From NCBI GenBank assembly GCA_963800255.1, contig CAWDAK010000016.1, forward strand, positions 12,815-76,814: a stretch of 64,000 nt of DNA. The letters are read 5' to 3'. Shown piece after piece: positions 23,660-44,724 of the stretch (its first letter is position 1; every line of letters starts with the position of its first letter). Source of the stretch: an uncultured Ignavibacteria bacterium. GTDB taxonomy: Bacteria > Bacteroidota > Ignavibacteria > Ignavibacteriales > Ignavibacteriaceae. The notes below the pieces were generated by a model. That model was not told the origin of the DNA, did not search any database, and saw only the letters and a program-made list of their open reading frames with translations. The position numbers were made by a program, and so were the translations under genes.

Positions 23660-23681
23660 ATTTCAACCTCGTTTATATCAT

Positions 23682-24704: not shown

Positions 24705-24755
24705 ACTGTTATCCTCCTGTATACTTTTAATTAAAATCAGAAACGTCCTTCTACT

Positions 24756-28374: not shown

Positions 28375-29862
28375 TTAATTTTTCAAAGTCTGCAGAGCAT
28401 CCTTTAATGGGTCAGTGAAATCAAATCCGAACAACGCGGGATTTTGGCCAATTACCGCAGCAGAGAAAATATAAAAAACATAATTGTATGTTTCATCGGG
28501 AATTTTATCCCTGTACTTAGCAAGGAGGTTCCAGAAGTTCCTGTCTTTCGGGTTGGCGGGAATTTTTCGGATCAGGTCGATAATATTATACTCTCCCCAA
28601 TTATAAGACGCCATCACGAGCAGTCCCGAAGCCTGGGCATCGGTGTTATAAATATCTTTAAGATAGCGCGAAGCAGCACTTGTGGCTTTGGGAAAGTTAT
28701 ATCTATCGTCACCGGGGTCATAAACACTCTCGTTTGAAAGCGGCCCGATAGTAAGACCGTACTTCTGAGCTGTAGCAGGTATAAACTGCCAGATTCCTTT
28801 GGCATATCCGTACCTCGTCTGCGGTCCCACTATCTGGTCACGGAAGTCGCTTTCCTGGAGCGCCAGGTAAAAAAACTGAGGCGGAAGGTCCTGCCTTACC
28901 AGGTAATTTACCACCACCTGTGCGTAGCCATTCTGATTTGCACGGTCAAGAGCTTTCTGCAGTCTCTGGCTCGACTTCCACTTGCTTATATAACTTTTTA
29001 CCTCGTCAATGAAATCTTTCGGCATAGTTAGTTCACACTCACCGAAAGCCCGTGCTGTTTTAATTATCAATTTTTCATCAGGAGCCAGATCATACGTGCC
29101 CAGCTGATCAACAAGCTTGTCATAGTTTTTCTGCAGTTCGTGTCTGCGTTCATCAAATTTCTGCAGAGCCTTAATTATTTTCGGATCCCCCGAAGATGCA
29201 AGATCATGTTTCAGTGATTCTATTTCAAGCTCAAGTGATTTCATATCATAGAAAATATTTTCAGCAAGGGCTTTCTGCTTGTTCTCTTTTATATTCTGGT
29301 AAATAGAGTATGCCGCAGCAATAACCGCAAGCAGTCCTACTACCGCTATTACCTTAATATATTTTGAAGTGTGTTTTTTCTTAACAACTTTGAAAGCTTC
29401 ACGCATAAGGCGGGTGTGTTCACCTACCTGGTCGTCGCTCTTCGATTCGTCGAAATAATGCTGAATATAACTGGTAACGGAAGGATCTTTTAAGGAATCA
29501 GATTTTACTGCGGGAACAGCTTCTTTTTCCTCGAATGAAAATATAAGTACCGGACCATTATTCCCCAGCTCAAGCGTGGTTGTTGCTTTTAATTCGATGT
29601 TCTCGATTTTTTTCCCGTTGAGGAATGTACCGTTGCTGCTGTGCTTATCAGATACCCACCATTTTTCCCCGTCGAAGATAACTTCAACATGAACCCTGCT
29701 TACAACCCCCTCATCAATTGTGATGGAACAATCTTCAGATCTTCCGATAGTGAAAGTTTTATCAAAATAAAATTCCTTCTGCGGGCAGTTCCCCTTTTCT
29801 ATCTTAACTTTGATAATCGTATTTGATAGGGAAGGAGATTCGCTTAATTGTGTGCTGTTCAT
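28375..29862 (-). CDS. FHA domain - TM - coiled coil - SLT-family lytic transglycosylase fusion
   Basis: FHA: FTIGRSEDCSITIDEGVVSRVHVEVIF..KWWVSDKHSSNGTFLNGKKI. TM: YIKVIAVVGLLAVIAAAYSIY. SLT: LALQESDF, YAKGIWQFIPATAQKYGL and MASYNWGEYN. Confidence 0.8.
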   Translation of the reverse strand: MNSTQLSESPSLSNTIIKVKIEKGNCPQKEFYFDKTFTIGRSEDCSITIDEGVVSRVHVEVIFDGEKWWVSDKHSSNGTFLNGKKIENIELKATTTLELGNNGPVLIFSFEEKEAVPAVKSDSLKDPSVTSYIQHYFDESKSDDQVGEHTRLMREAFKVVKKKHTSKYIKVIAVVGLLAVIAAAYSIYQNIKENKQKALAENIFYDMKSLELEIESLKHDLASSGDPKIIKALQKFDERRHELQKNYDKLVDQLGTYDLAPDEKLIIKTARAFGECELTMPKDFIDEVKSYISKWKSSQRLQKALDRANQNGYAQVVVNYLVRQDLPPQFFYLALQESDFRDQIVGPQTRYGYAKGIWQFIPATAQKYGLTIGPLSNESVYDPGDDRYNFPKATSAASRYLKDIYNTDAQASGLLVMASYNWGEYNIIDLIRKIPANPKDRNFWNLLAKYRDKIPDETYNYVFYIFSAAVIGQNPALFGFDFTDPLKDALQTLKN

Positions 29863-29877
29863 TCTGTAAAATTAATA

Positions 29878-30465
29878 CTATTTATCAGGATTAAAACTCA
29901 GCATCATCCTTACGATTGCCGGTCCGATTGTCTGCCTAGTCTTTTTTGTAAATGAGGCTGTCAGTTTATAAGCCTTTTTATCGTGAAAAGTGTAAACCTG
30001 GTGCTGGTAAATTCTATAATCATCCAGCGGGTACCAGCTGAAAATAGCCTCGTAGGCTTCAGCCCCATTCGTCAGTTCGGTTTCGCCCTTTTTAAGAAGC
30101 GTGCAGCCCTTCAGCTCTTCTTCGAGGGTTTTTATATGCCATTCGGCATAATCCTGAAGGCTGTCGATAGTGTTTTCGTTATCAACTGTAATTATAACGT
30201 TATGCTGAATACCATCTGTTACAGGTCCGTTTATAGTGTAAATGGTTTTATCTTCCCACTCTTCAAGCTGGTTTACTATGAACCCGTTTCCCTGGAATAC
30301 AACTGTTTTATCCTGCGGGGCAGCTGGTTTTGATTCCTGCTTTGCAGGATGCTTCTGCGGTGGTGCTTTGGGCTGCTCTGTTTGCGGAGCTTCCGGAGTT
30401 TTTTCCTCCTTCTTCTCCTCAGCCGGCTGATTTTGAAACTGCCGGTAATAATCTGGTATTTTCAT
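29878..30465 (-). CDS. DUF1795/DcrB-like protein (possible Eag-type T6SS effector chaperone) with a Pro/Lys/Glu-rich N-terminal region
   Basis: GFIVNQLEEWEDKTIYTINGP...HNVIITVDNE...SLQDYAEWHIKTLEEELKG..LLKKGE..L.NG.EAYEAIFSW......IYQHQVY.F.DKKAYKLTASF follows the DUF1795 layout as I recall it. Confidence 0.4.
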   Translation of the reverse strand: MKIPDYYRQFQNQPAEEKKEEKTPEAPQTEQPKAPPQKHPAKQESKPAAPQDKTVVFQGNGFIVNQLEEWEDKTIYTINGPVTDGIQHNVIITVDNENTIDSLQDYAEWHIKTLEEELKGCTLLKKGETELTNGAEAYEAIFSWYPLDDYRIYQHQVYTFHDKKAYKLTASFTKKTRQTIGPAIVRMMLSFNPDK

Positions 30466-30483: not shown

Positions 30484-31335
30484 TTATGGACGGGGGGTAA
30501 GCTGCACAACAGCTCCTTCCGTGAAACATTGATCATTAATGTTCTCATCAAGCTTGTAAAAGTTAATGGGACAAAGCATATGTTCGCCCATCAACTCAAA
30601 ATCCGCCGTTGAAGGTTCTCTTCCGGCACCATTACTGGCAAGAGTTTGTACACCTGAAACATCATGCATGCTGCCTGTTAGCGCATTTCTCCAACGGGGA
30701 TTGTTTGGACGGTTATCTGTCTCTGTTTTACAGTGAGCTATTTCATGGAATGCTGTGGTTGCAAGGCTGTTTGCCAAAAGAACATCCCAGTTTGTGGCTT
30801 CAAAGTTTTGCCTCGCATCGCTGAATACACAAGCAGTTACCGGGTATGAGATTCCGGATATACCGGGGAGTGAAAGTCCGTTATGCTCCCCCAAACTACT
30901 CAGAGTCGACCGCTGTTCGCTTACCCAGCTCTGCGGAAATTCCTGGCTTCGGGCGTTTTGTAAAGCATTCAGCATTATATATTCGGGGCGGCGGTCAATC
31001 TCGTCGGCAGGTGTTGAGTCAAGCACCCGGGTTGTAAAGTATACTATGGGCTCGCCTATATTCACAGTAATACCGCTGAAATCCGGGCTCACAGGGTTGC
31101 CGGGCAGGGAGGGTATTCTTATAACGTTAATCGTCTGATCCCTTGAATCACGATGCGGGATGTGTGCTTTAGATTGATCCATCAGGTCGATCAGCTTTGT
31201 TCGGAACCCGTCAAATATTCCCTGGACTACAGCTGAATCAACTCCGGGAGATTCCAGGATTACTCCTGTTGCTCCGGAGGAAGCCCTAATCCTTAATGGC
31301 TTAATGACAAAATAATAAATGTTATAAACAGGCAA
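30484..31335 (-). CDS. Hypothetical protein with HExxH motif (candidate metallopeptidase-type toxin)
   Basis: TTAFHEIAHCKTE is the only motif. No signal peptide. Amino-acid and GC composition differ from the neighbours. Confidence 0.35.
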   Translation of the reverse strand: MPVYNIYYFVIKPLRIRASSGATGVILESPGVDSAVVQGIFDGFRTKLIDLMDQSKAHIPHRDSRDQTINVIRIPSLPGNPVSPDFSGITVNIGEPIVYFTTRVLDSTPADEIDRRPEYIMLNALQNARSQEFPQSWVSEQRSTLSSLGEHNGLSLPGISGISYPVTACVFSDARQNFEATNWDVLLANSLATTAFHEIAHCKTETDNRPNNPRWRNALTGSMHDVSGVQTLASNGAGREPSTADFELMGEHMLCPINFYKLDENINDQCFTEGAVVQLTPRP

Positions 31336-31365: not shown

Positions 31366-32232
31366 TTACTGTATTTCAAAAGATTCCAGGTATTCGTGAA
31401 TTTCAGGAATTGTCATTTGTGAATATTTCCAAAGAAGTGTGCTGTGCTGCTCGAACGGGTGATGGAGCAAGGTAGTCCATTTGCGCCATAAATGGTGGTC
31501 TGACTGATCTACAATCGTTTGTCCTGCTGAACCTTCAGGTCCTTCAAATCTGTTGACCCGGGGATTCTGTGTCGAGTGACCTACTGTTTTATGTGCGTCA
31601 ACCCGGCAGTTGGGACAATGACGTACCAGACTGTCCCTTAAGTGAGCAGCGAAGCTATCGTCTGTGTCTCCCGCTGAACAAGCATAAAGCACAATTTTTA
31701 CATCAGGTTTTGAAATCCTTGCGATTGCCTGTGCAAGTGCATCTGTATCATTCATTTCCGTTGATTGATATGTAATTTGCGTGTTGGTTCTGAAACCTAT
31801 CTGTATACCGGCATGCCAGCCGTGACAGAAGAAAGCAATAACACTTACATTCTCTCCTGAAGGAAAGCTGTCCAGTACATCAAGGACTTTCCTCTTCATC
31901 TGTGCTGCAGAGACCGGATTTTTTATCTCGCCATGTACTTCTTCGCATTCACCATTGTCTACAATGTAAGTTGATTCATAAGGAGCGAAGTTGTAGTATG
32001 AGAAGTACCATGTTTCCGGCATAAACGCACCGCCGACATCGTTTGTCCTGTCGGGTTTGCAGCATCTCAGTCTGAAACTCAATATATCGCTCCTTGTAAT
32101 CAGGCTGCTGGAATCCGACGACCTGTCGATTCTGCTTGCTCTTCTGGTAAGCCCTCTGTATATCCGTTCTTCAGGATCAGTCCATCCTTCGTCTCCCCAT
32201 GCACATCTATGATGAGCTTCAGTTGCACACAT
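31366..32232 (-). CDS. Hypothetical protein; a His...Cys pair in beta-strand contexts hints at a caspase-like fold
   Basis: VSVIAFFCHGWHAG and VKIVLYACSAGD resemble the His and Cys strands of clan CD peptidases. The true start is uncertain (alternative Met at MPETWYF). Confidence 0.3.
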   Translation of the reverse strand: MCATEAHHRCAWGDEGWTDPEERIYRGLTRRASRIDRSSDSSSLITRSDILSFRLRCCKPDRTNDVGGAFMPETWYFSYYNFAPYESTYIVDNGECEEVHGEIKNPVSAAQMKRKVLDVLDSFPSGENVSVIAFFCHGWHAGIQIGFRTNTQITYQSTEMNDTDALAQAIARISKPDVKIVLYACSAGDTDDSFAAHLRDSLVRHCPNCRVDAHKTVGHSTQNPRVNRFEGPEGSAGQTIVDQSDHHLWRKWTTLLHHPFEQHSTLLWKYSQMTIPEIHEYLESFEIQ

Positions 32233-32249: not shown

Positions 32250-33539
32250 TCAAAATTTCTCATTTATTTTTTGTCTGAGTTCCCCGTCAATATCTCCCGA
32301 TACAGTCATATTATTGTCTTTCCTGAAATTCCTAACTGCTTCTGCCGTCATTGCTCCTGCCTCACCGTCTATCCTTCCTGCATAGTAGCCGAGGTTCTGC
32401 AGTCTTTCCTGAATTCCTGCTGTACTATCGTCCGGTTCAAGATCTGTCAGCTGCAGTATTGTACTAAATGAAGGGCGATCCTCACCGTCCCTCAGCCAGA
32501 ACAAAAGTTTAGCCTGAAGAATATTTGGGGGAATTTGCTCCTGCAATAGTCCGTCACCGTCGGTGGTCCCTGCTTTTACTTTTTGTCCATATCTTAGTTC
32601 ATATTTTTTATTTGAGTACTTGTTGCCGTCGGGGTCCTTCATATATATCTTTATTGTCTTATCGGCGGGAGGTTCAGCCTCAGATGTCTCTTCTTCATTA
32701 TCATCTTCAAGAACTATTTTATAGGGACCAGGGGGTGCATCTTCAAACAAGTACCTTCCGTCTCCGTCAAAAGTTTCTTGCTTTTCCTCTCCGTCTGCAG
32801 TCACAATCTTGAATTTCTGGTTTGCTGCAGGCTGGCCGTTCTCATATCGCCATACTATTTCCACGGTATCTTTGAACTTCAGCAAGCCTGAATCTTCAGA
32901 AACTCCGGCGATAGTCACTCTGAAAAAATATTCGGGATTATTGTAGCCGTTCTCAGCTTCATTGTCATCGGGAATATCGTCGGTATCCTCTACATACTGA
33001 AATTCCCATTCTGTTTTGATTTTCTGACTCTTAACGAGAGCGGGGAATGATACAACAAGATCGTGTGCACCGTCATTGTCGTGTTCAAAAATTTCAATCG
33101 TCGTCTCAGCTCCATCATATGCTCCTTTAACATCCGCTGTTAGTTTCAGGATGTCGCCTCGCCGGGCTTCATTCTTATCCCACTTCAGGTTTGATATTTT
33201 TATGGGCGGGAGCAGAATAATTGAATTCGACTTTTTCTCGAGTCCAAGTTTTGAAAGTTTTGCAGTTGCTGTTAACTCATCCTTCAGGTTTTCGGGGATG
33301 TCGATGGATTTCCAGAAACGATTGCCTGTAATTTTTCCCTTAACGGTTCCGCCTGATTTACCGGATTTATCCTTGATCTCAATTTTGATCTCAGAATTAT
33401 TTCCTACAAACTTCGTAAATACATCTATCCCGATTTTACCGCCGGCTGAAGCCATATTCTTAGTAAATACAACCTGCTCAATCAAAGATTCGAGCTTTAC
33501 TTCTTTAACTTTTCCGGTCTGGCCTGATTGTTTTTCCAT
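32250..33539 (-). CDS. Multi-Ig-like protein with C-terminal peptidoglycan-binding domain (PG_binding_1)
   Basis: C-terminus GIQERLQNLGYYAGRIDGEAGAMTAEAVRNFRKDNNMTVSGDIDGELRQKI. The middle ~170 aa are colinear with the C-terminal extension of the PAAR protein. No signal peptide. Confidence 0.6.
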   Translation of the reverse strand: MEKQSGQTGKVKEVKLESLIEQVVFTKNMASAGGKIGIDVFTKFVGNNSEIKIEIKDKSGKSGGTVKGKITGNRFWKSIDIPENLKDELTATAKLSKLGLEKKSNSIILLPPIKISNLKWDKNEARRGDILKLTADVKGAYDGAETTIEIFEHDNDGAHDLVVSFPALVKSQKIKTEWEFQYVEDTDDIPDDNEAENGYNNPEYFFRVTIAGVSEDSGLLKFKDTVEIVWRYENGQPAANQKFKIVTADGEEKQETFDGDGRYLFEDAPPGPYKIVLEDDNEEETSEAEPPADKTIKIYMKDPDGNKYSNKKYELRYGQKVKAGTTDGDGLLQEQIPPNILQAKLLFWLRDGEDRPSFSTILQLTDLEPDDSTAGIQERLQNLGYYAGRIDGEAGAMTAEAVRNFRKDNNMTVSGDIDGELRQKINEKF

Positions 33540-33541: not shown

Positions 33542-34717
33542 TTACTTTTGAGGACTCAGTAAATATATACTGCTTTCAGTAGCAGCAATGATTTCATTAT
33601 TCACATTCACTATAGGGGGAGTGGTAAGCCTCTCTCCCGGAAACTGGAAGATAAATTGTCTCTCTCCTGATTCGTCTATCTGCATTATATACTCCCCTTC
33701 AGAGAGTAATAGTTTATTGTCAGAAGTAACAACAGCTCCTCCGGTTTCTCCTGTTGTAAATGTCTGCCACCTTAGTTTTCCGTCTTCAGTATAACTGAAA
33801 ACACGATCGTTGAACACCAAAAATATACTGTGATCGTATGCCACTATAGGTGGAACCAAATTCTGCTTGTCTTCAACAGGTATCTTTGTATCCACAAGCA
33901 GTTCGCCTTCAGGGGAAACTACCCATAATGCAAGTTTATTTTCTGAATTTATAACTGTCATATAAATTCTGCCGGATTCATCAAGACTTAAGGTAACAGG
34001 GGTGAACTCTCCGTCAATTTCAGATTTTAATGCGAGGTCCATTCCTGAAATTATAATTTTGTTATTAATTGCACAGACAAAAGTATTTTTATTTGCGGCA
34101 GAAGCTGAATTACCCGCAGAAAAGAAAGTCTGGTTCAATTCTTTATATGAAGTAAGATTTCCGTTTTCTATAATAGGAGGGTCATCAATTGCATAAGATT
34201 CCAGTAGAATAAACCTGTTTGGAGAAGGATTGTGAGGATTTTTATTTACAATATTATCTGCAATCAGAAAACTACCATCGTTCCTGTATATGAATTTCCT
34301 TTCTACATCCTCCAGCCCGTTTACCTGCATACTGTACAATTTTTCATGTGAGGATAATTCAACCGCAGTGATCTGTCCGAGCCTGTCAGCGTAATAGAAT
34401 AGTCCGTGCTCTGCATCGAATATAATATCACTATTACCCAGGAAATCCGCCGCTTCTGATTTTCCTCCGGCGTCAAGCAGCTGCCATCTACCGGAGCCGA
34501 ATGCAACGAAATTGTCATTTGCTGTAAGTATAAAATCGGCAGGGAAGAATGGATCGATGGGAATCTTCCATTTAATTTCCAGCGGTTTATAAGTAACCTT
34601 AACCGGGATTCTGGAGTTCAGCATTTCATTGGCGAAGGGACGCGGATAATTATTTCCGGCCTTTTCCTCTTTATAACCTGGCAGCGATACAAAATTTCCG
34701 GAGTTTATTATTGTCAT
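33542..34717 (-). CDS. Hypothetical beta-rich (propeller-like) protein, candidate periplasmic immunity protein; the true start is probably upstream
   Basis: Immediately downstream of the 1291-aa candidate effector. The in-frame upstream sequence 34718..34813 encodes IKLVIIYKALLLILLPVFITWAQD, a textbook signal peptide, with no ATG/GTG/TTG. Confidence 0.45.
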   Translation of the reverse strand: MTIINSGNFVSLPGYKEEKAGNNYPRPFANEMLNSRIPVKVTYKPLEIKWKIPIDPFFPADFILTANDNFVAFGSGRWQLLDAGGKSEAADFLGNSDIIFDAEHGLFYYADRLGQITAVELSSHEKLYSMQVNGLEDVERKFIYRNDGSFLIADNIVNKNPHNPSPNRFILLESYAIDDPPIIENGNLTSYKELNQTFFSAGNSASAANKNTFVCAINNKIIISGMDLALKSEIDGEFTPVTLSLDESGRIYMTVINSENKLALWVVSPEGELLVDTKIPVEDKQNLVPPIVAYDHSIFLVFNDRVFSYTEDGKLRWQTFTTGETGGAVVTSDNKLLLSEGEYIMQIDESGERQFIFQFPGERLTTPPIVNVNNEIIAATESSIYLLSPQK

Positions 34718-34809
34718 TTTTTTAATATGGTTTTGATTTAAATCCTGCGCCCACGTAATGAAAACAGGAAGAAGAATTAAAAGTAATGCCTTATATATTA
34801 TTACCAGCT

Positions 34810-37800
34810 TTATTTAACTCCCGGTACTGCTCTTTTAACAATAATATTTTTTATATCATCGCTAGATGGAGTTTTTGATCCTGATAGGGTTAGTCCGGTC
34901 ATCTCACCGAAAAACGGCAGCATAAGGTTACCGAGGTTATTTGCGGAAGTAGTAACGTCCAGATTTATATGAAGCTCATGCTTGCCTGACCATCCTGTGG
35001 TTAAGCCTTTGCCTATTTTAGTTAAAAAATGTCTTGGGTGAAAGTTTTCAATATTGTTAACATGACTGATATAATCTGACTGGGTCGCGTCGGTTGCTGT
35101 CGGTTTTGCCGGGGGGGCGGGCGTAAATTTATAGTCCATCTGGGCCAGGTAATCTATGTTGAAAGGATCTGTCAGTTCTACTATAAGATTTTCAACCAGG
35201 AACCTTGGTGAAAAATGAACAAGCAGATTTTCAAAATGCACACCGGAAATGTCGCCCTTATAGTTAAAAATATTATTCATATTCTTAGTGACAGCATTCC
35301 TGAATGAAGCCAGTGCACTCACTATTTGCCTGTGTTTAACAGCCTCGGGGATAGAATACCTGATTTTAACAAGGACGAGCAGCAGCCCGTCACATCCTTT
35401 TCCTCCAAGAAATTCAAACCTGTAATTGTCATTACCTATTTGATAAAGGTATAAATCAAATAAACTGTGCGATCCAACAGATGCATTGGATTCAACAAAA
35501 AGAGGAAAGTGACTGAAATTTCTTTGAGGAGCGGATGGATGAGATTTAAGATTATATTTCCTGGTTGCGGTACCCCTGGTAATCTCAACATTAAAAGGAA
35601 GTCCCGTAATTTTACTTACAAACTCTGCCGAATGCCAGTAATACCTGCTGTGAATATTTGTTGTGCCTTCATACATAAGAGGCGCGTGCGACGAAGATTG
35701 TGGAATCTGTGAATAGGGGTCTCCGGGAGTATTGGTTCCGAAACCTAAAAATTGATATGAACAGGAATCTCTTGACCACCTTTCATTATATTCATCGGGC
35801 AGACTTGCACCGTGTCCGCATTCGTGTGCGGCAATGAAACTATTACTTGAATCCGGTTCTTCATTTCCTATAGAAAAATTTCCAATACCGTTATCACCGT
35901 TCATATTGGCACGCGGTATTGAAATTACGTTAATCTGGAAATGAGCCCTGTTAAATATTGATTTTTGTATGAAAAAATAAGGCTGCACTTTAATTTTTAA
36001 TTTGCTTTCGTCCTGAGGTTTTATCTCAAACGTTCCCGGATTTCCCCCGTCGGGACCATTCCATCGTTTAGGCAGATTCTCAACCATTTTTTTCTCGTAA
36101 ACAGCGGCATTGAAAGGAGTTCCATCCTTGTTTTTGGAAGGGGCTCCGGTCAGGTTGTAAAAGAACCTGAAGTATGACATCACTTTTGCAATTTCGGTTC
36201 CGTCCTTTACATCACAGCATCTTATAAGCGCTTTATCGAATCTTCCTATAAGAAAACCAAAATTATTTGGAACAGGTTTCTCAAATTCTTTGTACTGTCC
36301 TGTTGCAAGGTCCACTGACCTTGTGGGATAAATATCCTGTGAAAAGAAAGGCTGTATTGCAAAGAAACTTTTCTTTGGATCTGCATCTGACGAAAATCTT
36401 GCCGGTCTTTTGTTCATTTTGGTATTTGGTTTTACCCCCAGGCTGACAGCGTCAACCCACATAACCGCAGCCCTGGCACCTGTTGCATCGTTTCCTCCGC
36501 CCGCAGGAGTTCGTTTATCGAAAATCTCAAAAATATTTCCTTCGGCGATTACAAGTCTTGTCCAATCGGGATAATCGTTAAGATAACAACCATTCAGCAG
36601 TTTGATATCGCTAAAAGGGAATACATCTTTAGAAGAATCGGTGCCCGGGTTATATACTCCCTGGTCGGAAATAGGCTTACCTACTCCAGTCTTGGGATTT
36701 AGAAATTGATGAAAAAATACCGCGACAGCCTCTGTATTATTAATTTTATGCTGTTTCAAATCTTTTCCTGTAAGAATGATATCATCCAGCGAAAAGATTA
36801 AAGGCGTGGCCGAACTAAGACTTTTATCAAGATCGCCCTGACTGAGGGCTTCGAACAGCTTTCCATCCTGATCTTTGAACCGTGTAAAATATTTTTTAGC
36901 TGTCCATAACTCCGGGAGGTCATAAAATTTCAGCCTGTCGGGTCCGGGTACTAGTTTTGACTTATCAGAAATTTTATCCGTTTTCCTTGTTTTTGCATCC
37001 TCTGAAATTACATAAGTATCGGGTTCTAACTTAATTCTTAGGAATATTTTAGTATCCGGTTTAGGCTGATCTTTTCCGTCACTGCCTTTCTGAATGATCC
37101 AGGGGAGGCATAGAACGGTATCTTTATTTGAATCTTCTTTGATAATCCAGCTCGAGCGCGTATCTGGTTTCTCGCTGCCCGTTGAGGGTTCTTTACTGAA
37201 GCCCTCAATGAAGACCGGAGGTATGCATATTCTTAAATGCTCATGACTGCTGTGCCCGAATACCCTGTCGAAAAATTCCATCCTGATAAACTGCCACTTA
37301 GGCTCAAGCACCATTTCAACAAATCCCCCCTCTGACCCGATATTTTTTTTCTTCTCTTCAATGTTGACGAAATCAGGTTCTTTGAAATCGTCTGTTTTAC
37401 CTACTTCCCATTTTGAATTTTTCAGCGACCATTTGAGTGGAAGTTTAAATATTTTATTTCCGTTTTTCTGAAGATCGGGAACTTCAGGTTCAAATACAGA
37501 TTTAGTTTCGCCTGAATCTTTTGGTTTTGAAAAAAATATATCGTTAGCCGTTTCAAACTTGAGGGTGAAAGATTTTTTCTTTCGTTCAACAAGGAATTTT
37601 AGTTTACCGTCCTTTGAGGTTGATTCATCCTGTGTAGTACCGTCAGGAAATTCAACTGTAACAGGAAAATCACCTGGAAATGTTTTTTTATTCGCTTCGG
37701 GATCTTTATAAAATAATTGAAGGAAAACACGTGCAGCTTCCCCGCTTGGAACGGGAAGAGGTTCAGCAGGTACCGGCTTTCTTTCGAAAAGCTCTGTGCC

Positions 37801-38685
37801 GTATAAGTCGCATTTGGAGCTTATACATGTTGTCTTATTCGGATGACATTTAAGAAGCGGCTCTTCTCCTTCATCAAAGAAAAGAATTTCAACCCTCCGG
37901 TCAGCTGGATTTTCCGACTCGGTTTTAGATTTGCTTGCCGGGAAATTTTCACCGCATCCTACTTTTGGTGCCGGTGAGGGTGACGGTTTTTCAATAAACA
38001 GCAATTTCGCCTGAATTTCCCCGAGACCTTCACGGGTGATTCCCATTATAATGGCAAGCTCTTCCATATAAACATCAAAGAAAGCTCCCCATGTTTTTAT
38101 TTCAATTTTTCCTGTCTCGGGTATCTGCTCTTCGAATTCTTTGTTATAACGCACCTGGAATTTTTTCAGTGCTTCTGATGCAGCACTATCCTTTTCATTA
38201 TTTACCTCACCTGGATCGCAATCCCAGCCCCAGTTAAAAGAGATCCATTTCAGAATTTGTTTATAATCTTCAACCTGGTGCTTTTTATCAGATATGATTG
38301 CCCACTCGGTTTTCTTTCCTGCTAAAGCGGCAAAAACATTTTCAGCACGCTGCCTTGAAAGCTTTAAATTATATTCCGCACTTCCTTTTTTATCGGTATG
38401 ACCCACAACCAGTATTCGCTGGGCAAAGGATCTATCCTGACAAAGTTTGTAGCAGCTGAATAATACTCCCAATCCTGTTATACGGTTCTGTTCTGCTGTG
38501 CCCGGCTGTGGGGCCTCTTTGCCAAAATCAGGAAGCAGGACGGCGCTGTCGAAATGGAAATTAACATCTTCCATTTCGATTACAGAAAAAGACAGCTTCG
38601 TCTTAACTGTTATTGTTTGCCTGATCCCGGAAGTCAGGTCGCCTATTTTGTCTGTAGTTCTTGCATCGATTGTAATTTCTGACAT
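34810..38685 (-). CDS. Large candidate T6SS effector/accessory protein: split OmpA-like PG-binding domain plus C-terminal HExxH...DEY metallopeptidase-like region
   Basis: ILVVGHTDKKGSAEYNLKLSRQRAENVFAAL ... ADRRVEILFF is an OmpA_C-like domain with a ~130-aa insert. FIAAHECGHGASLPDEYNE is a zincin motif. No signal peptide. Lies directly after PAAR. Confidence 0.55.
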   Translation of the reverse strand: MSEITIDARTTDKIGDLTSGIRQTITVKTKLSFSVIEMEDVNFHFDSAVLLPDFGKEAPQPGTAEQNRITGLGVLFSCYKLCQDRSFAQRILVVGHTDKKGSAEYNLKLSRQRAENVFAALAGKKTEWAIISDKKHQVEDYKQILKWISFNWGWDCDPGEVNNEKDSAASEALKKFQVRYNKEFEEQIPETGKIEIKTWGAFFDVYMEELAIIMGITREGLGEIQAKLLFIEKPSPSPAPKVGCGENFPASKSKTESENPADRRVEILFFDEGEEPLLKCHPNKTTCISSKCDLYGTELFERKPVPAEPLPVPSGEAARVFLQLFYKDPEANKKTFPGDFPVTVEFPDGTTQDESTSKDGKLKFLVERKKKSFTLKFETANDIFFSKPKDSGETKSVFEPEVPDLQKNGNKIFKLPLKWSLKNSKWEVGKTDDFKEPDFVNIEEKKKNIGSEGGFVEMVLEPKWQFIRMEFFDRVFGHSSHEHLRICIPPVFIEGFSKEPSTGSEKPDTRSSWIIKEDSNKDTVLCLPWIIQKGSDGKDQPKPDTKIFLRIKLEPDTYVISEDAKTRKTDKISDKSKLVPGPDRLKFYDLPELWTAKKYFTRFKDQDGKLFEALSQGDLDKSLSSATPLIFSLDDIILTGKDLKQHKINNTEAVAVFFHQFLNPKTGVGKPISDQGVYNPGTDSSKDVFPFSDIKLLNGCYLNDYPDWTRLVIAEGNIFEIFDKRTPAGGGNDATGARAAVMWVDAVSLGVKPNTKMNKRPARFSSDADPKKSFFAIQPFFSQDIYPTRSVDLATGQYKEFEKPVPNNFGFLIGRFDKALIRCCDVKDGTEIAKVMSYFRFFYNLTGAPSKNKDGTPFNAAVYEKKMVENLPKRWNGPDGGNPGTFEIKPQDESKLKIKVQPYFFIQKSIFNRAHFQINVISIPRANMNGDNGIGNFSIGNEEPDSSNSFIAAHECGHGASLPDEYNERWSRDSCSYQFLGFGTNTPGDPYSQIPQSSSHAPLMYEGTTNIHSRYYWHSAEFVSKITGLPFNVEITRGTATRKYNLKSHPSAPQRNFSHFPLFVESNASVGSHSLFDLYLYQIGNDNYRFEFLGGKGCDGLLLVLVKIRYSIPEAVKHRQIVSALASFRNAVTKNMNNIFNYKGDISGVHFENLLVHFSPRFLVENLIVELTDPFNIDYLAQMDYKFTPAPPAKPTATDATQSDYISHVNNIENFHPRHFLTKIGKGLTTGWSGKHELHINLDVTTSANNLGNLMLPFFGEMTGLTLSGSKTPSSDDIKNIIVKRAVPGVK

Positions 38686-38693: not shown

Positions 38694-39767
38694 CTAATCC
38701 TGCTTAAATCTTGAAAGTTTGGGGAATGTAATGCTGTATTTGCCTTTAGGAACTTTCTCCTCCTTTTTATAACCGTTTCCGTCCAGCTTACCCTTTCTTA
38801 TTTCACCGCTTGCCAGGTAAAAAATGTATTCCTCATTCGCAACCGGCTTCCCATCCTGATCTTTTAATTCAATTTCAATATAATCTTCTATGAACAGAGT
38901 GCCGGAGCGTGCAGTAATTGCCGGTTTAGAAAGTGCTGTGAAATAGTAATCTGAGCTCGAGTAACCGTTTCCATCGGATGTCCCTGAAGGAACTTCCCAT
39001 TCGGCTTTTGCCTTACTGCCGCTTACTTTTGCTTCAAAGCTTGCAACCTGTGAATCTGCTTTCTTAATGTCACGTTCCCATACAAAGAAGTTAATTTTTT
39101 CACCATCATCTATTCCTTCAGTTTCAACACTAAGTTCTACTTTATCACCTGGTTTTACCAGCTCCTTAGACCACCCGGCTTTGTATATCTTTTTCAGAAT
39201 TAAACTTGCCTCTCCATCCTTTAGTGCGTCTCTTGTAATTCTTCCGTCGGTCTTTACTTTGCTGTATGAATCCTTCTTATCTGTATCTGTTAATTTATAA
39301 TCTACCCCGCTTACGGTATTTCCGGCTTTATCTACAAGTTTAAATTCTATCCAGTTCTTTTCTTTGGTAGAGGCCTCAGGACTCCCGGCTACGGCACTCT
39401 TCGCACTAGCCTTCGCTGCCGCTGATCCTGATGAACCCGCCCCGCCGCCGCTTCCGCTTCCTGCCCCTGCCATTCCTATCATCACGGTCGTACCCCCTTT
39501 TATTATTGAATCCGGTGGTCCAACGCACGTAGCCATATCACCCATCCTTGCTGCCGGCATTCCTCCGATCAGAACGGTTGGACTTCCGGGAGGCATGATG
39601 GGTCCACCCACATGAGGAATTGGCGGAACGCCCGGGGTTACCATGGGACAAACGTGCATGTCCCCAACTCTCGCTGCCGGCATATTTTCTATAAGTACGG
39701 TAGGACATCCCACTACAATGGCGCCGCCATGCGCGCAGGTATCTCCTAATCTTGCTGCAAAGCTCAT
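38694..39767 (-). CDS. PAAR-domain spike-tip protein with a ~230-aa C-terminal extension
   Basis: GDTCAHGG..VVGCPTVLIENMPAARVGDMHVCP....GPIMPPGSPTVLIGGMPAARMGDMATC..P..IIKGGTTVMIG, followed by a Gly/Ser/Ala linker and Ig-like modules. Confidence 0.85.
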   Translation of the reverse strand: MSFAARLGDTCAHGGAIVVGCPTVLIENMPAARVGDMHVCPMVTPGVPPIPHVGGPIMPPGSPTVLIGGMPAARMGDMATCVGPPDSIIKGGTTVMIGMAGAGSGSGGGAGSSGSAAAKASAKSAVAGSPEASTKEKNWIEFKLVDKAGNTVSGVDYKLTDTDKKDSYSKVKTDGRITRDALKDGEASLILKKIYKAGWSKELVKPGDKVELSVETEGIDDGEKINFFVWERDIKKADSQVASFEAKVSGSKAKAEWEVPSGTSDGNGYSSSDYYFTALSKPAITARSGTLFIEDYIEIELKDQDGKPVANEEYIFYLASGEIRKGKLDGNGYKKEEKVPKGKYSITFPKLSRFKQD

Positions 39768-39786: not shown

Positions 39787-41922
39787 TCAATTTATCTTTA
39801 CCATCGCTCCTTTAATTGTATTTATTCCGGAAGCTTCAACATTTGCCATAGTCCCTTTCACCTTAACAGCTACTCCGGCTTCCACTGTTGTATTCAATCC
39901 TTTTAGCTTATATTCTGCAGATGCTTCTGATGTAACATTCATCCCTTTTTGCTTCAGGTCGCTTTTTGCTTCTGAATTTATATTCGTTGCATTAATTTTA
40001 TAGTCTGTTTTCGCTTCGGATTTTATATTCGCCGCCTTAACTTCTGTGTCTCCCTCGGTTTCCAATTTGAAGGTTTTCGATTTGATGTTAATCTCGCCTT
40101 CAGGAGCCTGTATATCAATGCTTCCTTCTTTTGACTCTATAAGGAGCTTGTTGTTTTTTATGTCTATAATAAAATTATTGTTCTTTGGTTTATCTGACAT
40201 CTGAATTTTTTCAGCCCCGTCTGTATCATCTATCAGAAGAAAATGTCCGTTTTTGCTTGTTACAACAATTTTTGTGTTTTTGTCATCCAGCAGGATGGTG
40301 TGTCCGTCTTTCGTTGTAATGGTGATATTCTGGTTCTTATCATCCATCGTGATTTTATGTTTATCCTTTGACGTCACCTCGATTTTATCATCTTTATCAT
40401 CCATCAGAATTTTATGCGAATCAGAAGTAGTAAAAGAGATTTGTGTTTCTTTAGATTTGTCGTCAATAAGTATTTCATTACCTGCGGCTGTCCTGATAAT
40501 GTTGTGAGTTTTATTGTTTGATACAACCGGTGAAGCCTGTGAGGGATTCGGCACTGTTCCAATACCTACCGGTCTGTCTACATTCCCGTCAACGCACGCC
40601 CATAAAAGTTCCGCATCCTTGTGGTTCGGGAAGTGCATTCCGTAGCCTGATCCTGAATAACTTTGTGTTAACCTTATCGGCAGGGATGCTTCTCCGTTTG
40701 ATTTGTCGCTCAGATCAAACAGCATCTTGGCTTTATATCTGCCATGTTCGTCCAGGTATGCATATTCGTCACCGGCACCTGATTCCAGTTTGCCGCTCAT
40801 GATTCCTGAGATTTTTGGAACGGGAGTTTTCCTTGCAGGCCTGAAATCAATATCAAATGGTATTGCTTCAAAACGGCATTCATATATCGCATCGGGAGCC
40901 CCGAATTGGTCGGGAATTATGTACAGTCCCTTTTGAGAACCATAGCGGATAACCTTGGTGATGATATATTCTTCGTTCCAGCTCTCACGGAAATGATTGC
41001 TCATTTTAAAACGATAGCCGGGAGTAAATAATCTGCTGTCTGTCTTGCCGGTAAATATCTGGCTTTGTGCGATGAATTCCTGGTTCCTTACTTTTGCTAG
41101 AAATGAACCTGCTTTTTCATCCTCAAAATTGTCTCCGTAATCATAGTAGGTTCCCGGTGAATCAGAATTAATTTTACTTTCTGCCATTAATTGTTTTTCA
41201 GGAAATAGATAGTTGTAGTCTTTAAGCTGAACTTTTCCTGTAACTACCTTTTCACTTGAGGTGAGTTCGAGGATAGTTTCAATATTGGCCGAAGGTTCCT
41301 GTTCCTGGTTATAAATTATATCTTCGGCCATGTCTGCTTTAGGCAAATTGCTGTTATCATCAGTGAAACACACTACCTCTTTATCACCGCTCTGATCGAA
41401 ATAATAATAAATGCCGAAATGTTCCAGCCGCCTGTTCAGAAAGTTAAAGTCGGTTTCTCTGTATTGAACAGCAAACTCGCTTACGGGATAATTGTTTTTC
41501 AAATCAATTTTGTAGTCGCTGCTGGATAGCCCGTTATTCTCAAGAGCGGCTTTTATCAGATCACTAATCCCGACGTTCTGGTAAACTTCATTCCTGAAAG
41601 TAAGTCCGGAATTCCACAGCCGGGGTACAAGCACAACCTTGTAGAAGTAATGGTACTTTGAGTGTCCGAATTGCTGGAATTGTGAAATAATTCCGTGGAC
41701 GGTTGTCGTGCTTTTATCAGATCTGATTAGAGTAAAGGTAGCTGCCTTATTAAGGATTTTCGATGAATCAATATTAGGATCATCAATCGCTAAATATATC
41801 CGGTATTCGTATAACCCCGAAATCTCCTCCTGGCCTTCATATGACATAACCCCGAAATTGGCATCTTCCAGTAAGGTGAATTTAATATTGTAATACGGTT
41901 GATTGGACATTTGATCCGACAT
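39787..41922 (-). CDS. vgrG: T6SS spike protein VgrG (TssI)
   Basis: gp27-like N-terminal part, SGSGYGMHFPNHKDAELLWACVDGNVDRPVGIG (gp5 OB-fold block), then a long beta-helix of repeated ..I.M.DK...I.. units. Confidence 0.9.
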   Translation of the reverse strand: MSDQMSNQPYYNIKFTLLEDANFGVMSYEGQEEISGLYEYRIYLAIDDPNIDSSKILNKAATFTLIRSDKSTTTVHGIISQFQQFGHSKYHYFYKVVLVPRLWNSGLTFRNEVYQNVGISDLIKAALENNGLSSSDYKIDLKNNYPVSEFAVQYRETDFNFLNRRLEHFGIYYYFDQSGDKEVVCFTDDNSNLPKADMAEDIIYNQEQEPSANIETILELTSSEKVVTGKVQLKDYNYLFPEKQLMAESKINSDSPGTYYDYGDNFEDEKAGSFLAKVRNQEFIAQSQIFTGKTDSRLFTPGYRFKMSNHFRESWNEEYIITKVIRYGSQKGLYIIPDQFGAPDAIYECRFEAIPFDIDFRPARKTPVPKISGIMSGKLESGAGDEYAYLDEHGRYKAKMLFDLSDKSNGEASLPIRLTQSYSGSGYGMHFPNHKDAELLWACVDGNVDRPVGIGTVPNPSQASPVVSNNKTHNIIRTAAGNEILIDDKSKETQISFTTSDSHKILMDDKDDKIEVTSKDKHKITMDDKNQNITITTKDGHTILLDDKNTKIVVTSKNGHFLLIDDTDGAEKIQMSDKPKNNNFIIDIKNNKLLIESKEGSIDIQAPEGEINIKSKTFKLETEGDTEVKAANIKSEAKTDYKINATNINSEAKSDLKQKGMNVTSEASAEYKLKGLNTTVEAGVAVKVKGTMANVEASGINTIKGAMVKIN

Positions 41923-42099: not shown

Positions 42100-44724
42100 C
42101 TATACAAACTTGTACTTATATGAACCGTCTTTGGCCTTTGTTACTGTAACTTTCTCAGGACTTTTACCTTCAGCCATAAAACCCAGTAACTGTGAGGATA
42201 TTTCCGGAGCCAGTTTTTTATCTACAATTGCATCTATGTTCCTCGCTCCTGTTTCAGCTCTTGTACAGGAATCAACAATGTCGTCAATTACAGCTTTGTG
42301 GAATTCCACCGTCAGGTTCTGGTTCTGCTGCAGTTTCTTCTTAATCTTCCCGAGTTTCATTTCTACAATGGGTTTAAGCACTTCCTTACTTAGAGGCAGA
42401 AAGACTATCGGCTTTAACCTCCCTAAAAATTCCGGCCTGAAATACTGGTTCATATAAGGTCGAAGTTCTTCAAGCAGGTCTTCAGGGTTTGTCATCCCCT
42501 CATTGTATTTTTCAAAAAGCACTTCCGATGCAAGGTTCGAAGTCATAAATATAGTAGTGTTTGAGAAATCGATATTTCTCCTGTCAGCGTCCTGCAGCAT
42601 ACCTCTGTCAAACACCTGCATAAATAAATCAGTAACTGAACTATTTGCTTTTTCAATTTCATCCAGAAGTACAACACAATAAGGCCGGCGTCTGACGGGT
42701 TCACTCAATGATCCTCCTTCTCCGTAGCCTACCAGTCCGGGGTCTGCGCCTATCAGCCTCGATGTATTATACTCATTCTGGTATTCAGTCATATTAAGTG
42801 TAACCATAAATCTCTCGTCACCGAATAATACCTCTGCCGTTGCCCGTGCCAGCTCAGTTTTACCTACACCGCTGGGACCAACTAAAAGAAAAACACCGTT
42901 TGGTCCTTCTTCTTTTTTAATGCCTACTTTTGCCCCCCTTATTACATCAGCAATCTGCTTTACAGCATGGTCCTGTCCAACAACTCTTTTTTTCAATTCC
43001 GTCTCAAGCTGAAGCAAGGTAGTCATATCATCGCGTGTCATATTACCAACTTTTATACCTGTCCATGCTTCAATAACTTCGGCAACCGTGTTCGCTGTAA
43101 CTTCGGCAAAAACCTGCGGTGCGGGATCCTGTAATGCGATTAGTTCTTTTCTGATCTTTGAAATCTCTTCTGCTATAACAGGGTCTTCTTTGCTTGTCCC
43201 GTTCCCGTTACCCGCAAATTTTTTCATTCTCAGTTCCATCAGCTTCCTTATCAGCTCGCTCTCCTTTGTCCATTTGTCTTCATTAGTTTTTATGTCCAGC
43301 TCCAATTTTATCTTTTGATCCTTCAAGCCTTTCAGTATTCCCTGGTCAATTACAACATCCATGTCCGAATCTTTCTGTTGGGTGTTGATTGCCATGTCAA
43401 CCGACTTTAGCCTGCTGATCATTATTTCAAGCTTTGCCGGCTTGCTTGTAAGCGACATCTTAACTCTAGTTGCAGCCGTGTCAAGCAGATCTACAGCTTT
43501 GTCGGGCAGCTGACGTCCGGCTATATACCTCCTCGACAGTTTTACAGCTGCTTCAAGGGCTCCATCGGTAATATGTATTCCATGGTACGCTTCATATTTT
43601 GTCTTAATTCCGCGCAGCATTAAAATAGCCTTTTCATCATCAGGCTCGCCAACATGTATTGGCTGGAACCTTCTCTCAAGAGCCGCATCTTTCGCAAAGT
43701 ATTTATTGTATTCAAGATACGTGGTCGCTGCTATAGCCCTGAATGAACCTCTTGCAAGCGCAGGTTTAAGAAGGTTGGCTGCATCTCCGCCTCCCGCAGA
43801 TGCACCGGCCCCTATAAGAGTATGTGCCTCGTCAATAAACAGAATTGCCGGTACAGGTGAATTCGTCACCTCATTTATAACAGCTTTTAGTCGTTTTTCA
43901 AATTCACCCCGCATTTTGGTTCCTGCCTGCAATGAACCCATATCCAGGGAATAGATCTGGTTGTTTTTTAAAATATCAGGTACCTCATCCGCAGCAATTT
44001 TTATAGCAAGTCCTTCAACCAGGGCGGTCTTTCCTACTCCAGGTTCGCCGAGCAGTATAGGGTTTGATTTTTTCCTTCTGCACAATACTTCAATCACCTG
44101 GATAATTTCTTCGTCCCTTCCGAGGATCGGGTCTATCTTTCCGTCCTTTGCCTGGGTTACCAGGTTGGTGGTATATATGTCAAGCACCGTTCCGTCAGCA
44201 GGGATTGATTTGGCTTCCTCCTGCGACAACATTTCAGAAGAAACTGATTCATCTTCTACCGACCCTTTAACAATATTATAGAACTCTGTCCGGAGGTCCT
44301 CCTGTTTAACGGGGGCCAGTATATCCATCAACCTTGTGCTTATTATCTGCTCGGAGGCTATAAAGACTTCAAAAAAAGCACCTGACCTGATCCTTGTTTC
44401 GTGATGATGTACTGAACTTGTAATCCAGGCCTGTTCAAGTAATTCAGTCAGCAAAGGCGAGAGCTTAGGTTTTCCGCTGTTTCCTTTTTCCATTTCATCC
44501 AGGTTTTTCAGGCATCTAGCCTGAACATCACCGGCGTCAACAGCATAGTGTTTCAGTATAAGTGGAATATCTCCCTGGCCGTCTTCAATAAATGAATTCA
44601 GCAGATGATCAAATGTAATTTCATAATGCCCACGGTTTATGCCCAGTCCTGTTGCTGTGTCCAGGTTCCTTACCAGGTAGTTATTCAGTTTTAAAAGAAG
44701 TGATTTGAGATCCTTACTTTGCAT
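42100..44724 (-). CDS. clpV: T6SS AAA+ ATPase ClpV (TssH)
   Basis: Two Walker A sites, GEPGVGKTALVEGLA and GPSGVGKTELARATA. Clp N-domain. 874 aa. Confidence 0.9.
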   Translation of the reverse strand: MQSKDLKSLLLKLNNYLVRNLDTATGLGINRGHYEITFDHLLNSFIEDGQGDIPLILKHYAVDAGDVQARCLKNLDEMEKGNSGKPKLSPLLTELLEQAWITSSVHHHETRIRSGAFFEVFIASEQIISTRLMDILAPVKQEDLRTEFYNIVKGSVEDESVSSEMLSQEEAKSIPADGTVLDIYTTNLVTQAKDGKIDPILGRDEEIIQVIEVLCRRKKSNPILLGEPGVGKTALVEGLAIKIAADEVPDILKNNQIYSLDMGSLQAGTKMRGEFEKRLKAVINEVTNSPVPAILFIDEAHTLIGAGASAGGGDAANLLKPALARGSFRAIAATTYLEYNKYFAKDAALERRFQPIHVGEPDDEKAILMLRGIKTKYEAYHGIHITDGALEAAVKLSRRYIAGRQLPDKAVDLLDTAATRVKMSLTSKPAKLEIMISRLKSVDMAINTQQKDSDMDVVIDQGILKGLKDQKIKLELDIKTNEDKWTKESELIRKLMELRMKKFAGNGNGTSKEDPVIAEEISKIRKELIALQDPAPQVFAEVTANTVAEVIEAWTGIKVGNMTRDDMTTLLQLETELKKRVVGQDHAVKQIADVIRGAKVGIKKEEGPNGVFLLVGPSGVGKTELARATAEVLFGDERFMVTLNMTEYQNEYNTSRLIGADPGLVGYGEGGSLSEPVRRRPYCVVLLDEIEKANSSVTDLFMQVFDRGMLQDADRRNIDFSNTTIFMTSNLASEVLFEKYNEGMTNPEDLLEELRPYMNQYFRPEFLGRLKPIVFLPLSKEVLKPIVEMKLGKIKKKLQQNQNLTVEFHKAVIDDIVDSCTRAETGARNIDAIVDKKLAPEISSQLLGFMAEGKSPEKVTVTKAKDGSYKYKFV

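Follow-up and report, generated by a model that had tools for sequence, protein, structure and literature searches.

A candidate type VI secretion effector with a split OmpA-like head, a metzincin-like core and a beta-propeller partner in an uncultured Ignavibacteria bacterium

Directly behind the vgrG and PAAR genes of a type VI secretion system (T6SS) cluster in an uncultured Ignavibacteria bacterium lies an open reading frame (ORF) whose product resembles a peptidoglycan-binding protein at its N-terminus and a zinc metallopeptidase further along. Is this protein, here called X, a toxin that the secretion system would deliver to other cells, or is it a part of the secretion apparatus itself? 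The question was addressed in a 64,000-nucleotide (nt) stretch of contig CAWDAK010000016.1 (assembly GCA_963800255.1, positions 12,815 to 76,814), referred to below as the window; coordinates are positions in it. An earlier sequence-only reading had proposed a cell-wall-targeting effector and had named as the alternative a peptidoglycan-anchoring accessory of the TagL/TagN type.

The best reading is that X is a cargo effector of the window's own T6SS and a member of a polymorphic toxin family. We put at roughly 0.7 the probability that the T6SS delivers X as an antibacterial effector and that the beta-propeller protein encoded next to it confers immunity. Support for an effector comes from the interchangeable C-termini carried by its N-terminal module, from the slot behind vgrG and PAAR that these different proteins share, and from the co-variation of the propeller with one type of C-terminus. 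The more specific picture, a protease tethered to peptidoglycan in the periplasm, has about an even chance of being right.

34810..38685, minus strand: gene X, candidate T6SS cargo effector, 1291 residues (aa), from the ORF list and translation; stop codon 34810..34812
38694..39767, minus strand: PAAR protein, 357 aa, with a C-terminal extension (PAAR_motif of Pfam, E 2.8e-23)
39787..41922, minus strand: VgrG spike protein (Phage_GPD, E 4.5e-66; TIGR03361, E 3.4e-95)

Gene X starts 9 nt after the stop codon of the PAAR gene, which itself follows vgrG, so that the length and position given in the sequence-only reading stand. The PAAR protein consists of the PAAR domain (aa 1-100), a Gly/Ser/Ala linker and beta-sandwich domains. 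As had also been noted, X is free of any signal peptide or transmembrane helix, the highest 19-residue Kyte-Doolittle mean being 1.24. About 62 full-length homologues were found, at 23-91% identity. The nearest public relative, on an uncultured Ignavibacteria contig of a metagenome-assembled genome (MAG; locus L009), is 91% identical overall and 96% identical across the first 330 residues.

The N-terminal module, its family and its proposed link to the spike

37756..38685, minus strand: N-terminal module (N-module), aa 1-310, with a short beta N-terminus, a split OmpA_C-like domain and a Cys-containing tail (C280, C287, C292)
38320..38571, minus strand: OmpA_C-like core part 1, aa 39-122, including GHTD...RQRA (D98, R113); Pfam OmpA, and PDB matches to Pal, OmpA and TagL
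37972..38319, minus strand: PG_binding_1-like helical insertion, aa 123-238, five helices in the AlphaFold2 (AF2) model
37876..37971, minus strand: OmpA_C-like core part 2, aa 239-270 (VGCGENFP...RRVEILFF); Foldseek alignments to Pal and OprF bridge the insertion

The head of X is predicted, from sequence and model, to be a peptidoglycan-binding fold of the OmpA_C type. The two motifs from which an OmpA_C-like domain with a large insertion had been proposed are in place, GHTDKKGSAEYNLKLSRQRAENV at aa 95-117 and RRVEILFF at aa 263-270, and the proposal itself holds. Pfam OmpA (PF00691) scores 31.4 bits on X against a cut-off of 27.2, aligned over aa 89-122 only, and NCBIfam and PDB sequence searches match the same stretch to Pal, YiaD, OmpA and TagL-type proteins. 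All 54 N-module relatives examined match PF00691. An AF2 model of aa 1-330 built from 80 sequences has a predicted local distance difference test score (pLDDT) of 88.9 and a predicted template-modelling score (pTM) of 0.87, and its top PDB structure matches by Foldseek are Pal, the C-terminal domain of OprF, the peptidoglycan-binding domain of TagL and the C-terminal domain of OmpA (probability ~1.0, TMt 0.57-0.66). As the alignments cover 218-250 query columns for targets of 110-130 residues, the OmpA_C fold, with the beta-alpha-beta-alpha-beta-beta arrangement of Pal, OmpA-C and MotB-C, is complete in the model but split. The insertion of ~115 residues and five helices enters between the RAxxV helix and the GCGE...RRVEI strands. 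It likely is itself related to a second peptidoglycan-binding family: inserts of homologues score 20-38.8 bits with PG_binding_1 (PF01471, cut-off 23 bits), six of eight above the cut-off and with E down to 1e-9, and 42 of 54 family members match PF01471, while the insert of X stays below threshold (14.2 bits, E 0.051).

D98 of GHTD and R113 of SRQRA do not vary among the 80 aligned sequences and line up with residues of Pal; we take them to be the diaminopimelate-binding pair of OmpA/Pal-type domains. G95, H96, G101, N106, S110 and R263-R264-V265 are likewise invariant, and C156, C244, C280 and C287 nearly so.

The N-module is a discrete unit. In BLAST searches ~58 homologues share nothing else of X, at 36-55% identity and with aligned ranges that end at aa ~300-313. 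At E<=1e-30 it matches 355 protein clusters (clustered at 50% identity), and proteins among the best 150 matches listed are 182-1691 aa long. C-termini in 54 sampled members without the zincin-type region of X include protein-arginine deiminase (PAD; four members), Het-C (three), DUF2515 (two), a PF04185 phosphoesterase and M57, and many other N-module proteins have unrelated HExxH motifs near the C-terminus. Most of the attached C-terminal toxin domains match no Pfam family, and each has a candidate immunity gene.

Gene neighbourhoods were compared in the 80 best loci among GTDB species representatives, using our own ORF calling and phmmer. These loci lie in Ignavibacteria, Rhodothermota, Acidobacteriota, Planctomycetota, Myxococcota, Fibrobacterota and Gemmatimonadota. 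The same slot behind vgrG and a PAAR gene of ~360 aa holds a protein with an X-type C-terminus in some loci (L001, L002) and with other C-termini elsewhere (L003, L004), and across these four a different C-terminus comes with a different next gene. Orphan toxin/partner pairs of the family also occur outside T6SS clusters, and several loci have two N-module genes. Of 65 genes downstream of an N-module gene, 36 encode a signal-peptide- or transmembrane-like N-terminus; among control ORFs the figure is 37 of 241. Separately, a family of ~470 aa, which begins at about '...LSLTLD...TTFD.P.L.L.L.N.G...', accompanies one non-zincin C-terminal type. It is encoded directly after the N-module gene (L034, L035, L044, L050-L052, L056, L071, L085, L087), has versions with an N-terminal signal or transmembrane segment (L025, L032, L033, L038, L057), and is probably another immunity family.

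37558..37734, minus strand: small transthyretin/CarboxypepD_reg-like beta-sandwich of X, aa ~318-376 (PGDFPVTVEFPDGT...DGKLKF), from hhalign
38712..38882, minus strand: transthyretin-like module that ends the PAAR extension, aa 296-352; X is proposed to dock here
32250..33539, minus strand: 429-aa protein with beta-sandwiches like those of the PAAR extension and a C-terminal PG_binding_1 domain (E 1.1e-11), no signal peptide

How would such a protein reach the spike? The sequence-only reading had seen Ig-like modules of X recur in the PAAR extension and in the 429-aa protein. The latter two are homologous to each other (BLAST E 1e-20), and the module of X is related to the family of the PAAR terminal module by hhalign (probability 89%, E 2e-6); the direct link from X to either protein fails by BLAST, which found nothing significant. 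The PAAR terminal module has sub-threshold matches to prealbumin/transthyretin-like families (SpaA at E 1.7e-4, CarboxypepD_reg). Sufficient sequence upstream of the N-module gene was available in 74 loci, and in 42 of them the product of the gene just upstream ends in this same module of ~60 residues. In 23 of the 74 this protein is a PAAR protein of ~360 aa to which the module is fused; the 19 stand-alone carriers have an unrelated N-terminal part, in which Pfam found no match, then a Gly/Ser- or Pro-rich linker and the module at the C-terminus.

Elsewhere the parts are joined in one protein. Two MAGs of Myxococcota/Deltaproteobacteria encode single ORFs (L082 1602..5138 and L074 2485..6627) in which a Phage_GPD hub (37 bits) is joined to two transthyretin-like modules, a Pro/Glu-rich linker, the N-module and a further C-terminal region. 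These proteins amount to an 'evolved spike' form of the system. Tepidisphaeraceae have an adaptor-like region and a transthyretin-like module fused ahead of the N-module. We infer that X rides on the extended PAAR because of this upstream synteny, because of the fusion proteins, and because transthyretin-like domains at the C-termini of VgrG and PAAR proteins are established cargo-docking elements (PMC6899460, PMC7376260). That the composite module and the transthyretin-like module together form an undescribed system for marking and loading effectors of contractile injection machines, in many phyla, seems to us possible, a little short of an even chance. A peptidoglycan-binding domain is joined to part of a spike also in a 513-aa protein of Pyrinomonadaceae (L005/L006 6973..8514), annotated with OmpA, PG_binding_1 and Phage_base_V domains. 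Its gene lies upstream of that for an N-module toxin, a few genes away, and the locus also holds VgrG, DUF4123 and a short PAAR.

The same evidence permits another division of labour, in which the N-module serves mainly to load X onto, or be recognised by, the transthyretin-bearing PAAR or adaptor, its binding of target peptidoglycan is secondary or absent, and X is still an effector. The coupling to an upstream carrier in 42 of 74 loci and the Rosetta-stone fusions of adaptor or hub, transthyretin-like modules and N-module would suit this, as would the finding that LysM and PG_binding_1 domains, which occur alone, at VgrG C-termini and at toxin N-termini, aid recognition between VgrG and effector (PMC10673891). 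Yet invariance of D98 and R113 would be unexpected for a pure protein-protein surface, a loading domain would be redundant once fused to the hub (L082, L074) and is nevertheless kept there, and the transthyretin-like domain of X could dock by itself. We regard a mainly loading role as unlikely, if well worth keeping in view.

The metzincin-like core and its beta-propeller partner

36139..37557, minus strand: beta-rich middle of X, aa ~377-849, no recognisable family (AF2; generic Ig/pilin-like Foldseek matches with low template-modelling (TM) scores)
35596..36138, minus strand: metzincin-like catalytic core, aa ~850-1030, H954-E955-C-G-H958-G-A-S-L-P-D964-E-Y966, Met M1004
34813..35595, minus strand: conserved C-terminal alpha/beta region, aa 1031-1291, aligned across the family, G1264 and R1161 invariant, confidently modelled

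The HExxH...DEY motif that had been placed near residue ~940 is present in AAHECGHGASLPDEYNE at aa 952-968. H954, E955, H958, D964 and Y966 are invariant in 62 aligned sequences, and the pattern HE.GH.....D[ED]Y occurs in all complete full-length homologues at 23-91% identity, a conservation that, judged from the alignment, is well beyond chance. An Asp of the third-ligand type six residues past the second His, with a Tyr two further, is the motif type of families M6, M7 and M64. A conserved Met, M1004 ('MM' in most homologues), follows ~40 residues past D964, just ahead of a helix at aa 1013-1027. The suggestion of an M64-type signature was right about the motif type HExxHxxxxxD-x-Y, which M6, M7 and M64 have in common, and did not extend to membership of M64 or another curated family: M64 (PF09471, cut-off 26 bits) gave no match to X and 14.5 bits with one distant homologue, M6 InhA (PF05547, cut-off 22 bits) gave 12 bits with X and 15.1 with one homologue, and M7 snapalysin (PF02031, cut-off 25 bits) gave 13.9 bits, below its cut-off, with one homologue.

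An AF2 model of aa 311-1291, built from 62 sequences, has pLDDT 91.7 and pTM 0.88 and divides into four regions: a small beta-sandwich, ~470 beta-rich residues, an alpha/beta core at the HExxH helix and an alpha/beta C-terminus. The predicted order of elements at aa ~850-1030 (helix 860-876, five strands, HExxH helix 951-959, M1004 loop, helix 1013-1027) would be compatible with a metzincin core. A profile of the core compared with the PDB matched snapalysin 1C7K (AHETGHVLGLPDHY) across just 38 residues with E 0.001, and more weakly ADAM8 (E 0.018, ~95 positions), InhA (E 0.47) and the M64 IgA protease (E 0.92). Six zincin fragments compared with Pfam gave sub-threshold local matches to M6, M7, M10, M12, M64 and M66 only. 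Against a large protein database the core profile found five unannotated fragments and no bridge to curated peptidase families, and Foldseek of the 981-aa model against a viral library returned nothing meaningful. The last ~125 residues were considered as a polymorphic toxin tip, many BLAST alignments stopping near aa 1166, and this was rejected because the tail is conserved in the multiple alignment.

33542..34813, minus strand: candidate immunity beta-propeller, a 391-aa ORF from ATG 34717 plus 32 in-frame upstream codons

The 391-aa ORF has a weak PQQ_2 match. A homologue of it follows 20 of 28 zincin-type loci and none of 52 others (Fisher p 9e-13); several of the zincin-type loci without one are on cut or frameshifted contigs. 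Most propeller homologues start with a lipoprotein or Sec signal, MRAYLLSVTLIALASCQ of Roseithermus being one example, as expected for immunity against a toxin that acts in the periplasm. In the window, the 32 in-frame codons before ATG 34717 (34718..34813, minus strand) encode the signal-peptide-like KALLLILLPVFITWAQD / IKLVIIYKALLLILLPVFITWAQD..., and the first of them, ATA 34813, overlaps the end of gene X, with its final sense codon and stop codon. The coordinates 33542..34813 given to this gene in the sequence-only reading coincide with the ORF so extended. L009 has the same in-frame, start-less signal segment, and in L010 the segment is in another frame. Either the window propeller uses a non-canonical start (ATA 34813 or CTG), or it is translationally coupled, or its export has been lost in the lineage.

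If X is an effector, it would be synthesised in the cytoplasm without a signal peptide and would dock at the spike tip via the terminal transthyretin-like module of the extended PAAR, offering its N-terminal module, its own transthyretin-like domain or both as the docking surface. Fired with VgrG and PAAR into the periplasm of a neighbouring Gram-negative cell, it would bind peptidoglycan through the composite OmpA_C/PG_binding_1 module, with D98 and R113 gripping diaminopimelate, and so be kept at the wall. The metzincin-like domain might then hydrolyse a component of the envelope, be it the peptides of peptidoglycan or (lipo)proteins associated with it, with H954, H958 and D964 as putative zinc ligands, E955 as general base, Y966 as a further proposed catalytic residue and M1004 in a putative Met-turn. 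The exported beta-propeller encoded directly downstream would shield sister cells. The label 'cell-wall-targeting' follows from the predicted binding module rather than from a known substrate.

Several observations weigh against an effector of this kind, and the proposal is at its weakest over the zincin fold and over where translation of the candidate immunity gene starts. No peptidase model of Pfam or NCBIfam scores above threshold for X. Where metzincins have Gly, at +3 from the second His, X has Ser and most homologues have Ser or Thr; the canonical Gly occurs in two homologues only (P0064, P0071), and phmmer of P0071 against the PDB gave only MMP-14, at E 0.69. Foldseek of the whole 981-aa model against the PDB listed Ig, pilin and adhesin matches with low TM scores and no zincin, a result dominated by beta-sandwich domains and uninformative on the core. 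The window propeller as called (391 aa) has no signal peptide and hence would be cytoplasmic, the 32 codons preceding its ATG include no ATG, GTG or TTG, and the propellers of L010 and L023 are also without an intact signal. The X-type protein and its whole cassette are unusually conserved across Ignavibacteria, Rhodothermota and others, a pattern that would also fit a conserved accessory component. Finally, the partner of the N-module may be peptidoglycan, the PAAR module or both.

A narrower doubt is whether the zincin domain is the toxin at all. It might act as a peptidase for processing or auto-release, or be catalytically dead, and the toxic part would then be the middle or C-terminal regions. 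Some ~260 conserved residues after the core have no assigned function, releasing metallopeptidases are known in polymorphic toxins (PMC3482391), and the core stays below the thresholds of curated peptidase families. That role is nonetheless quite improbable: all catalytic-type residues are invariant, many sister proteins have a different HExxH domain 70-90 residues from the C-terminus, which is the toxin position, the C-terminal tail of X is conserved and not polymorphic, and the propeller co-varies with the whole zincin-type region.

The surrounding T6SS cluster

59431..60633, minus strand: fha (canonical T6SS Fha)
56861..57556, minus strand: tssL
55770..56831 and 53294..55537, minus strand: tssM as two ORFs (353 aa, the IcmF-related N-terminal part, and 747 aa, the remainder)
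42100..44724, minus strand: clpV
Within the T6SS-i cluster, minus strand: tssK, tagF, tssA, tssB, tssC, hcp, tssE, tssF, tssG
31366..32232, minus strand: 288-aa protein (weak DUF4347)
30484..31335, minus strand: 283-aa HExxH protein (FHEIAHCKTE, no Pfam match)
29878..30465, minus strand: 195-aa protein, N-terminus of low complexity and rich in Pro, Glu and Lys, DcrB/PF08786 domain (E 2e-9)
28375..29862, minus strand: 495-aa fusion of a cytoplasmic FHA domain, one transmembrane helix (aa 165-191) and a periplasmic SLT lytic transglycosylase
26488..28353, minus strand: PP2C phosphatase
25333..26481, minus strand: Ser/Thr kinase
21215..25361, minus strand: cluster end, with a PEGA-domain protein and two CsgG-like/TPR proteins (22352..24704)
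17561..21184, minus strand: 1207-aa protein with beta-propeller repeats, Ig-like domains and Por_Secre_tail, the sorting domain of the type IX secretion system

The window holds a complete T6SS-i cluster with every gene on the minus strand. Its TssL, as had been noted, is without a peptidoglycan-binding extension, having 231 aa with a DotU domain and a single transmembrane helix (aa 189-219) and no periplasmic part. Could X then be an accessory of the TagL/TagN type that anchors the apparatus to the producer's own peptidoglycan and makes up for the short TssL? No TagL-like protein with transmembrane helices and an OmpA domain was seen in the cluster, the peptidoglycan-binding domain of TagL is among the structural matches of the head, and the X-type protein and its neighbours are syntenic across distant genomes. 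X lacks a signal peptide or transmembrane helix by which to reach the periplasm, unlike TagL with its three transmembrane helices (PMC13584744). The interchangeable enzymatic C-termini with co-varying and mostly exported partners, the orphan copies far from T6SS genes and the loci with two N-module genes also disfavour this alternative, and the FHA-SLT fusion of the cluster could deal with the cell wall; we consider an anchoring role very improbable. Equally remote is an anti-eukaryotic or extracellular-matrix protease acting outside bacteria, with the propeller as chaperone or co-effector, which the signal-less window propeller as called and the signal-less downstream partners of some wider-family members would allow, against which stand peptidoglycan-binding domains that make sense only against bacteria, the predicted lipoprotein or secreted nature of most propeller homologues, and the signal-peptide-coding segment that the window retains in frame.

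Beyond X, six more genes (391, 429, 288, 283 and 195 aa, and the FHA-SLT fusion) precede the PP2C phosphatase and the Ser/Thr kinase. The gene for the 429-aa protein comes after that for the propeller in most related loci. Its product might be another peptidoglycan-binding protein that is secreted, or a co-effector or adaptor. The 283-aa HExxH protein is encoded behind the 288-aa protein, and the two are kept together in L009, L020 and L025, including behind a non-zincin N-module gene; they could be a second effector pair. The 195-aa gene is conserved near the end of related clusters. No client effector with transmembrane helices is evident; we take PF08786 to be the former DUF1795, with the fold of Eag-type T6SS chaperones. 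The gene for the FHA-SLT fusion adjoins those for the phosphatase and kinase, stands at the same place in L001, L003, L012, L016, L030 and L057, and its product could couple threonine-phosphorylation signalling to local opening of the wall for T6SS assembly.

The two tssM ORFs are separated by a gap of ~230 nt. TssJ was not recognised in the cluster, and the PEGA-domain and CsgG-like/TPR proteins at its end might be the outer-membrane part of the T6SS membrane complex. The Por_Secre_tail protein is encoded just past the cluster; the organism therefore also has a type IX secretion system.

Significance and comparison with known systems

Marker domains (MIX, FIX, RIX, WHIX, LysM, PG_binding_1) have been the chief route to new T6SS toxins, and to our knowledge T6SS effector biology is based almost wholly on Proteobacteria and Bacteroidales. 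The composite OmpA/PG_binding_1 module is a candidate for a new marker and is widespread in phyla of soils and sediments that have few cultured members. Should it indeed form a marking and loading system together with the transthyretin-like module, it would set apart a large and new class of polymorphic T6SS effectors outside the proteobacterial lineages and give a sequence handle on toxins and immunity genes, including a new metzincin-like toxin family with beta-propeller lipoprotein immunity. A T6SS toxin may also be tethered to the target wall by two stacked peptidoglycan-binding folds. Roseithermus sacchariphilus MEBiC09517 (CP030158.1), with its homologue of X at about 3.93 Mb, is a cultured carrier. 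Were the effector reading wrong, X would be an unusual spike-associated peptidoglycan-binding component and still of interest.

T6SS metallopeptidase toxins that act in the periplasm and N-terminal domains of the peptidoglycan-binding type are already known. What sets X apart is the composite module, which extends far beyond Proteobacteria and is paired with a putative docking module of the transthyretin-like type, together with its combination of zincin and propeller. A search of a limited body of literature returned no OmpA-type N-terminal module in T6SS effectors and nothing on the T6SS of Ignavibacteria, nor any account of the composite OmpA/PG_binding_1 module or of a zincin/propeller pair.

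The C-terminal metallopeptidase of VgrG2b, from the H2-T6SS of Pseudomonas aeruginosa, shows toxicity in the periplasm alone, requires its HExxH motif and is countered by the envelope-located immunity protein PA0261 (PMC6899460). It is an HExxH toxin on a T6SS spike with an adjoining transthyretin-like module and envelope immunity, a lipoprotein in Enterobacteriaceae (PMC6899460), features to each of which X would have a counterpart. The toxin of VgrG2b is covalently part of VgrG, whereas X is a separate cargo protein; chains of the 6H56 type are not among the PDB matches of X, and no sequence relationship is detectable. X also has a peptidoglycan-binding head, a beta-rich spacer of ~500 residues and a propeller partner of ~400 aa, in contrast to the small immunity protein of VgrG2b.

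In its motif type and spacing and its downstream Met, the core of X resembles the metzincins snapalysin (M7, 1C7K AHETGHVLGLPDHY), InhA (M6, ...GLPDEY) and IgA peptidase (M64). It differs in that the matches are local (~38 residues) and below Pfam gathering scores, in its Ser for the +3 Gly, and in being embedded in a 1291-aa multidomain protein.

Docking through a transthyretin-like domain has been described, for example for VgrG1 and Tle1 of enteroaggregative Escherichia coli (EAEC), where a small prealbumin-like beta-sandwich at the spike C-terminus is encoded beside its cargo, as the PAAR module is here (cited in PMC6899460 and PMC7376260). The assignment in the window draws on sub-threshold SpaA and CarboxypepD_reg matches and on gene neighbourhood, and the module also ends stand-alone adaptor-like proteins and recurs in X and the 429-aa protein.

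LysM and PG_binding_1 domains of vgrG loci are likewise found at the N-termini of diverse T6SS toxins, alone and fused to spike parts (PMC10673891). That study lists no OmpA-type domain and has PG_binding_1 in gamma-proteobacteria only (PMC10673891), whereas the module of X is an OmpA_C fold with a nested PG_binding_1-like insert and occurs in many non-proteobacterial phyla. TagL (SciZ) of EAEC offers an OmpA/Pal/MotB-type domain in a cluster whose TssL has none, placed in the periplasm at the C-terminus behind three transmembrane helices (PMC13584744); in X the domain is N-terminal and split, transmembrane helix and signal peptide are absent, the C-terminus is protease-like and the relatives are polymorphic. 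Tox-OmpA of PVC-type toxins is also an OmpA-superfamily domain in toxins of contractile injection systems, located at the very C-terminal end and put forward as the actual toxin (PMC3482391), whereas in X the OmpA-like domain is the constant N-terminal module.

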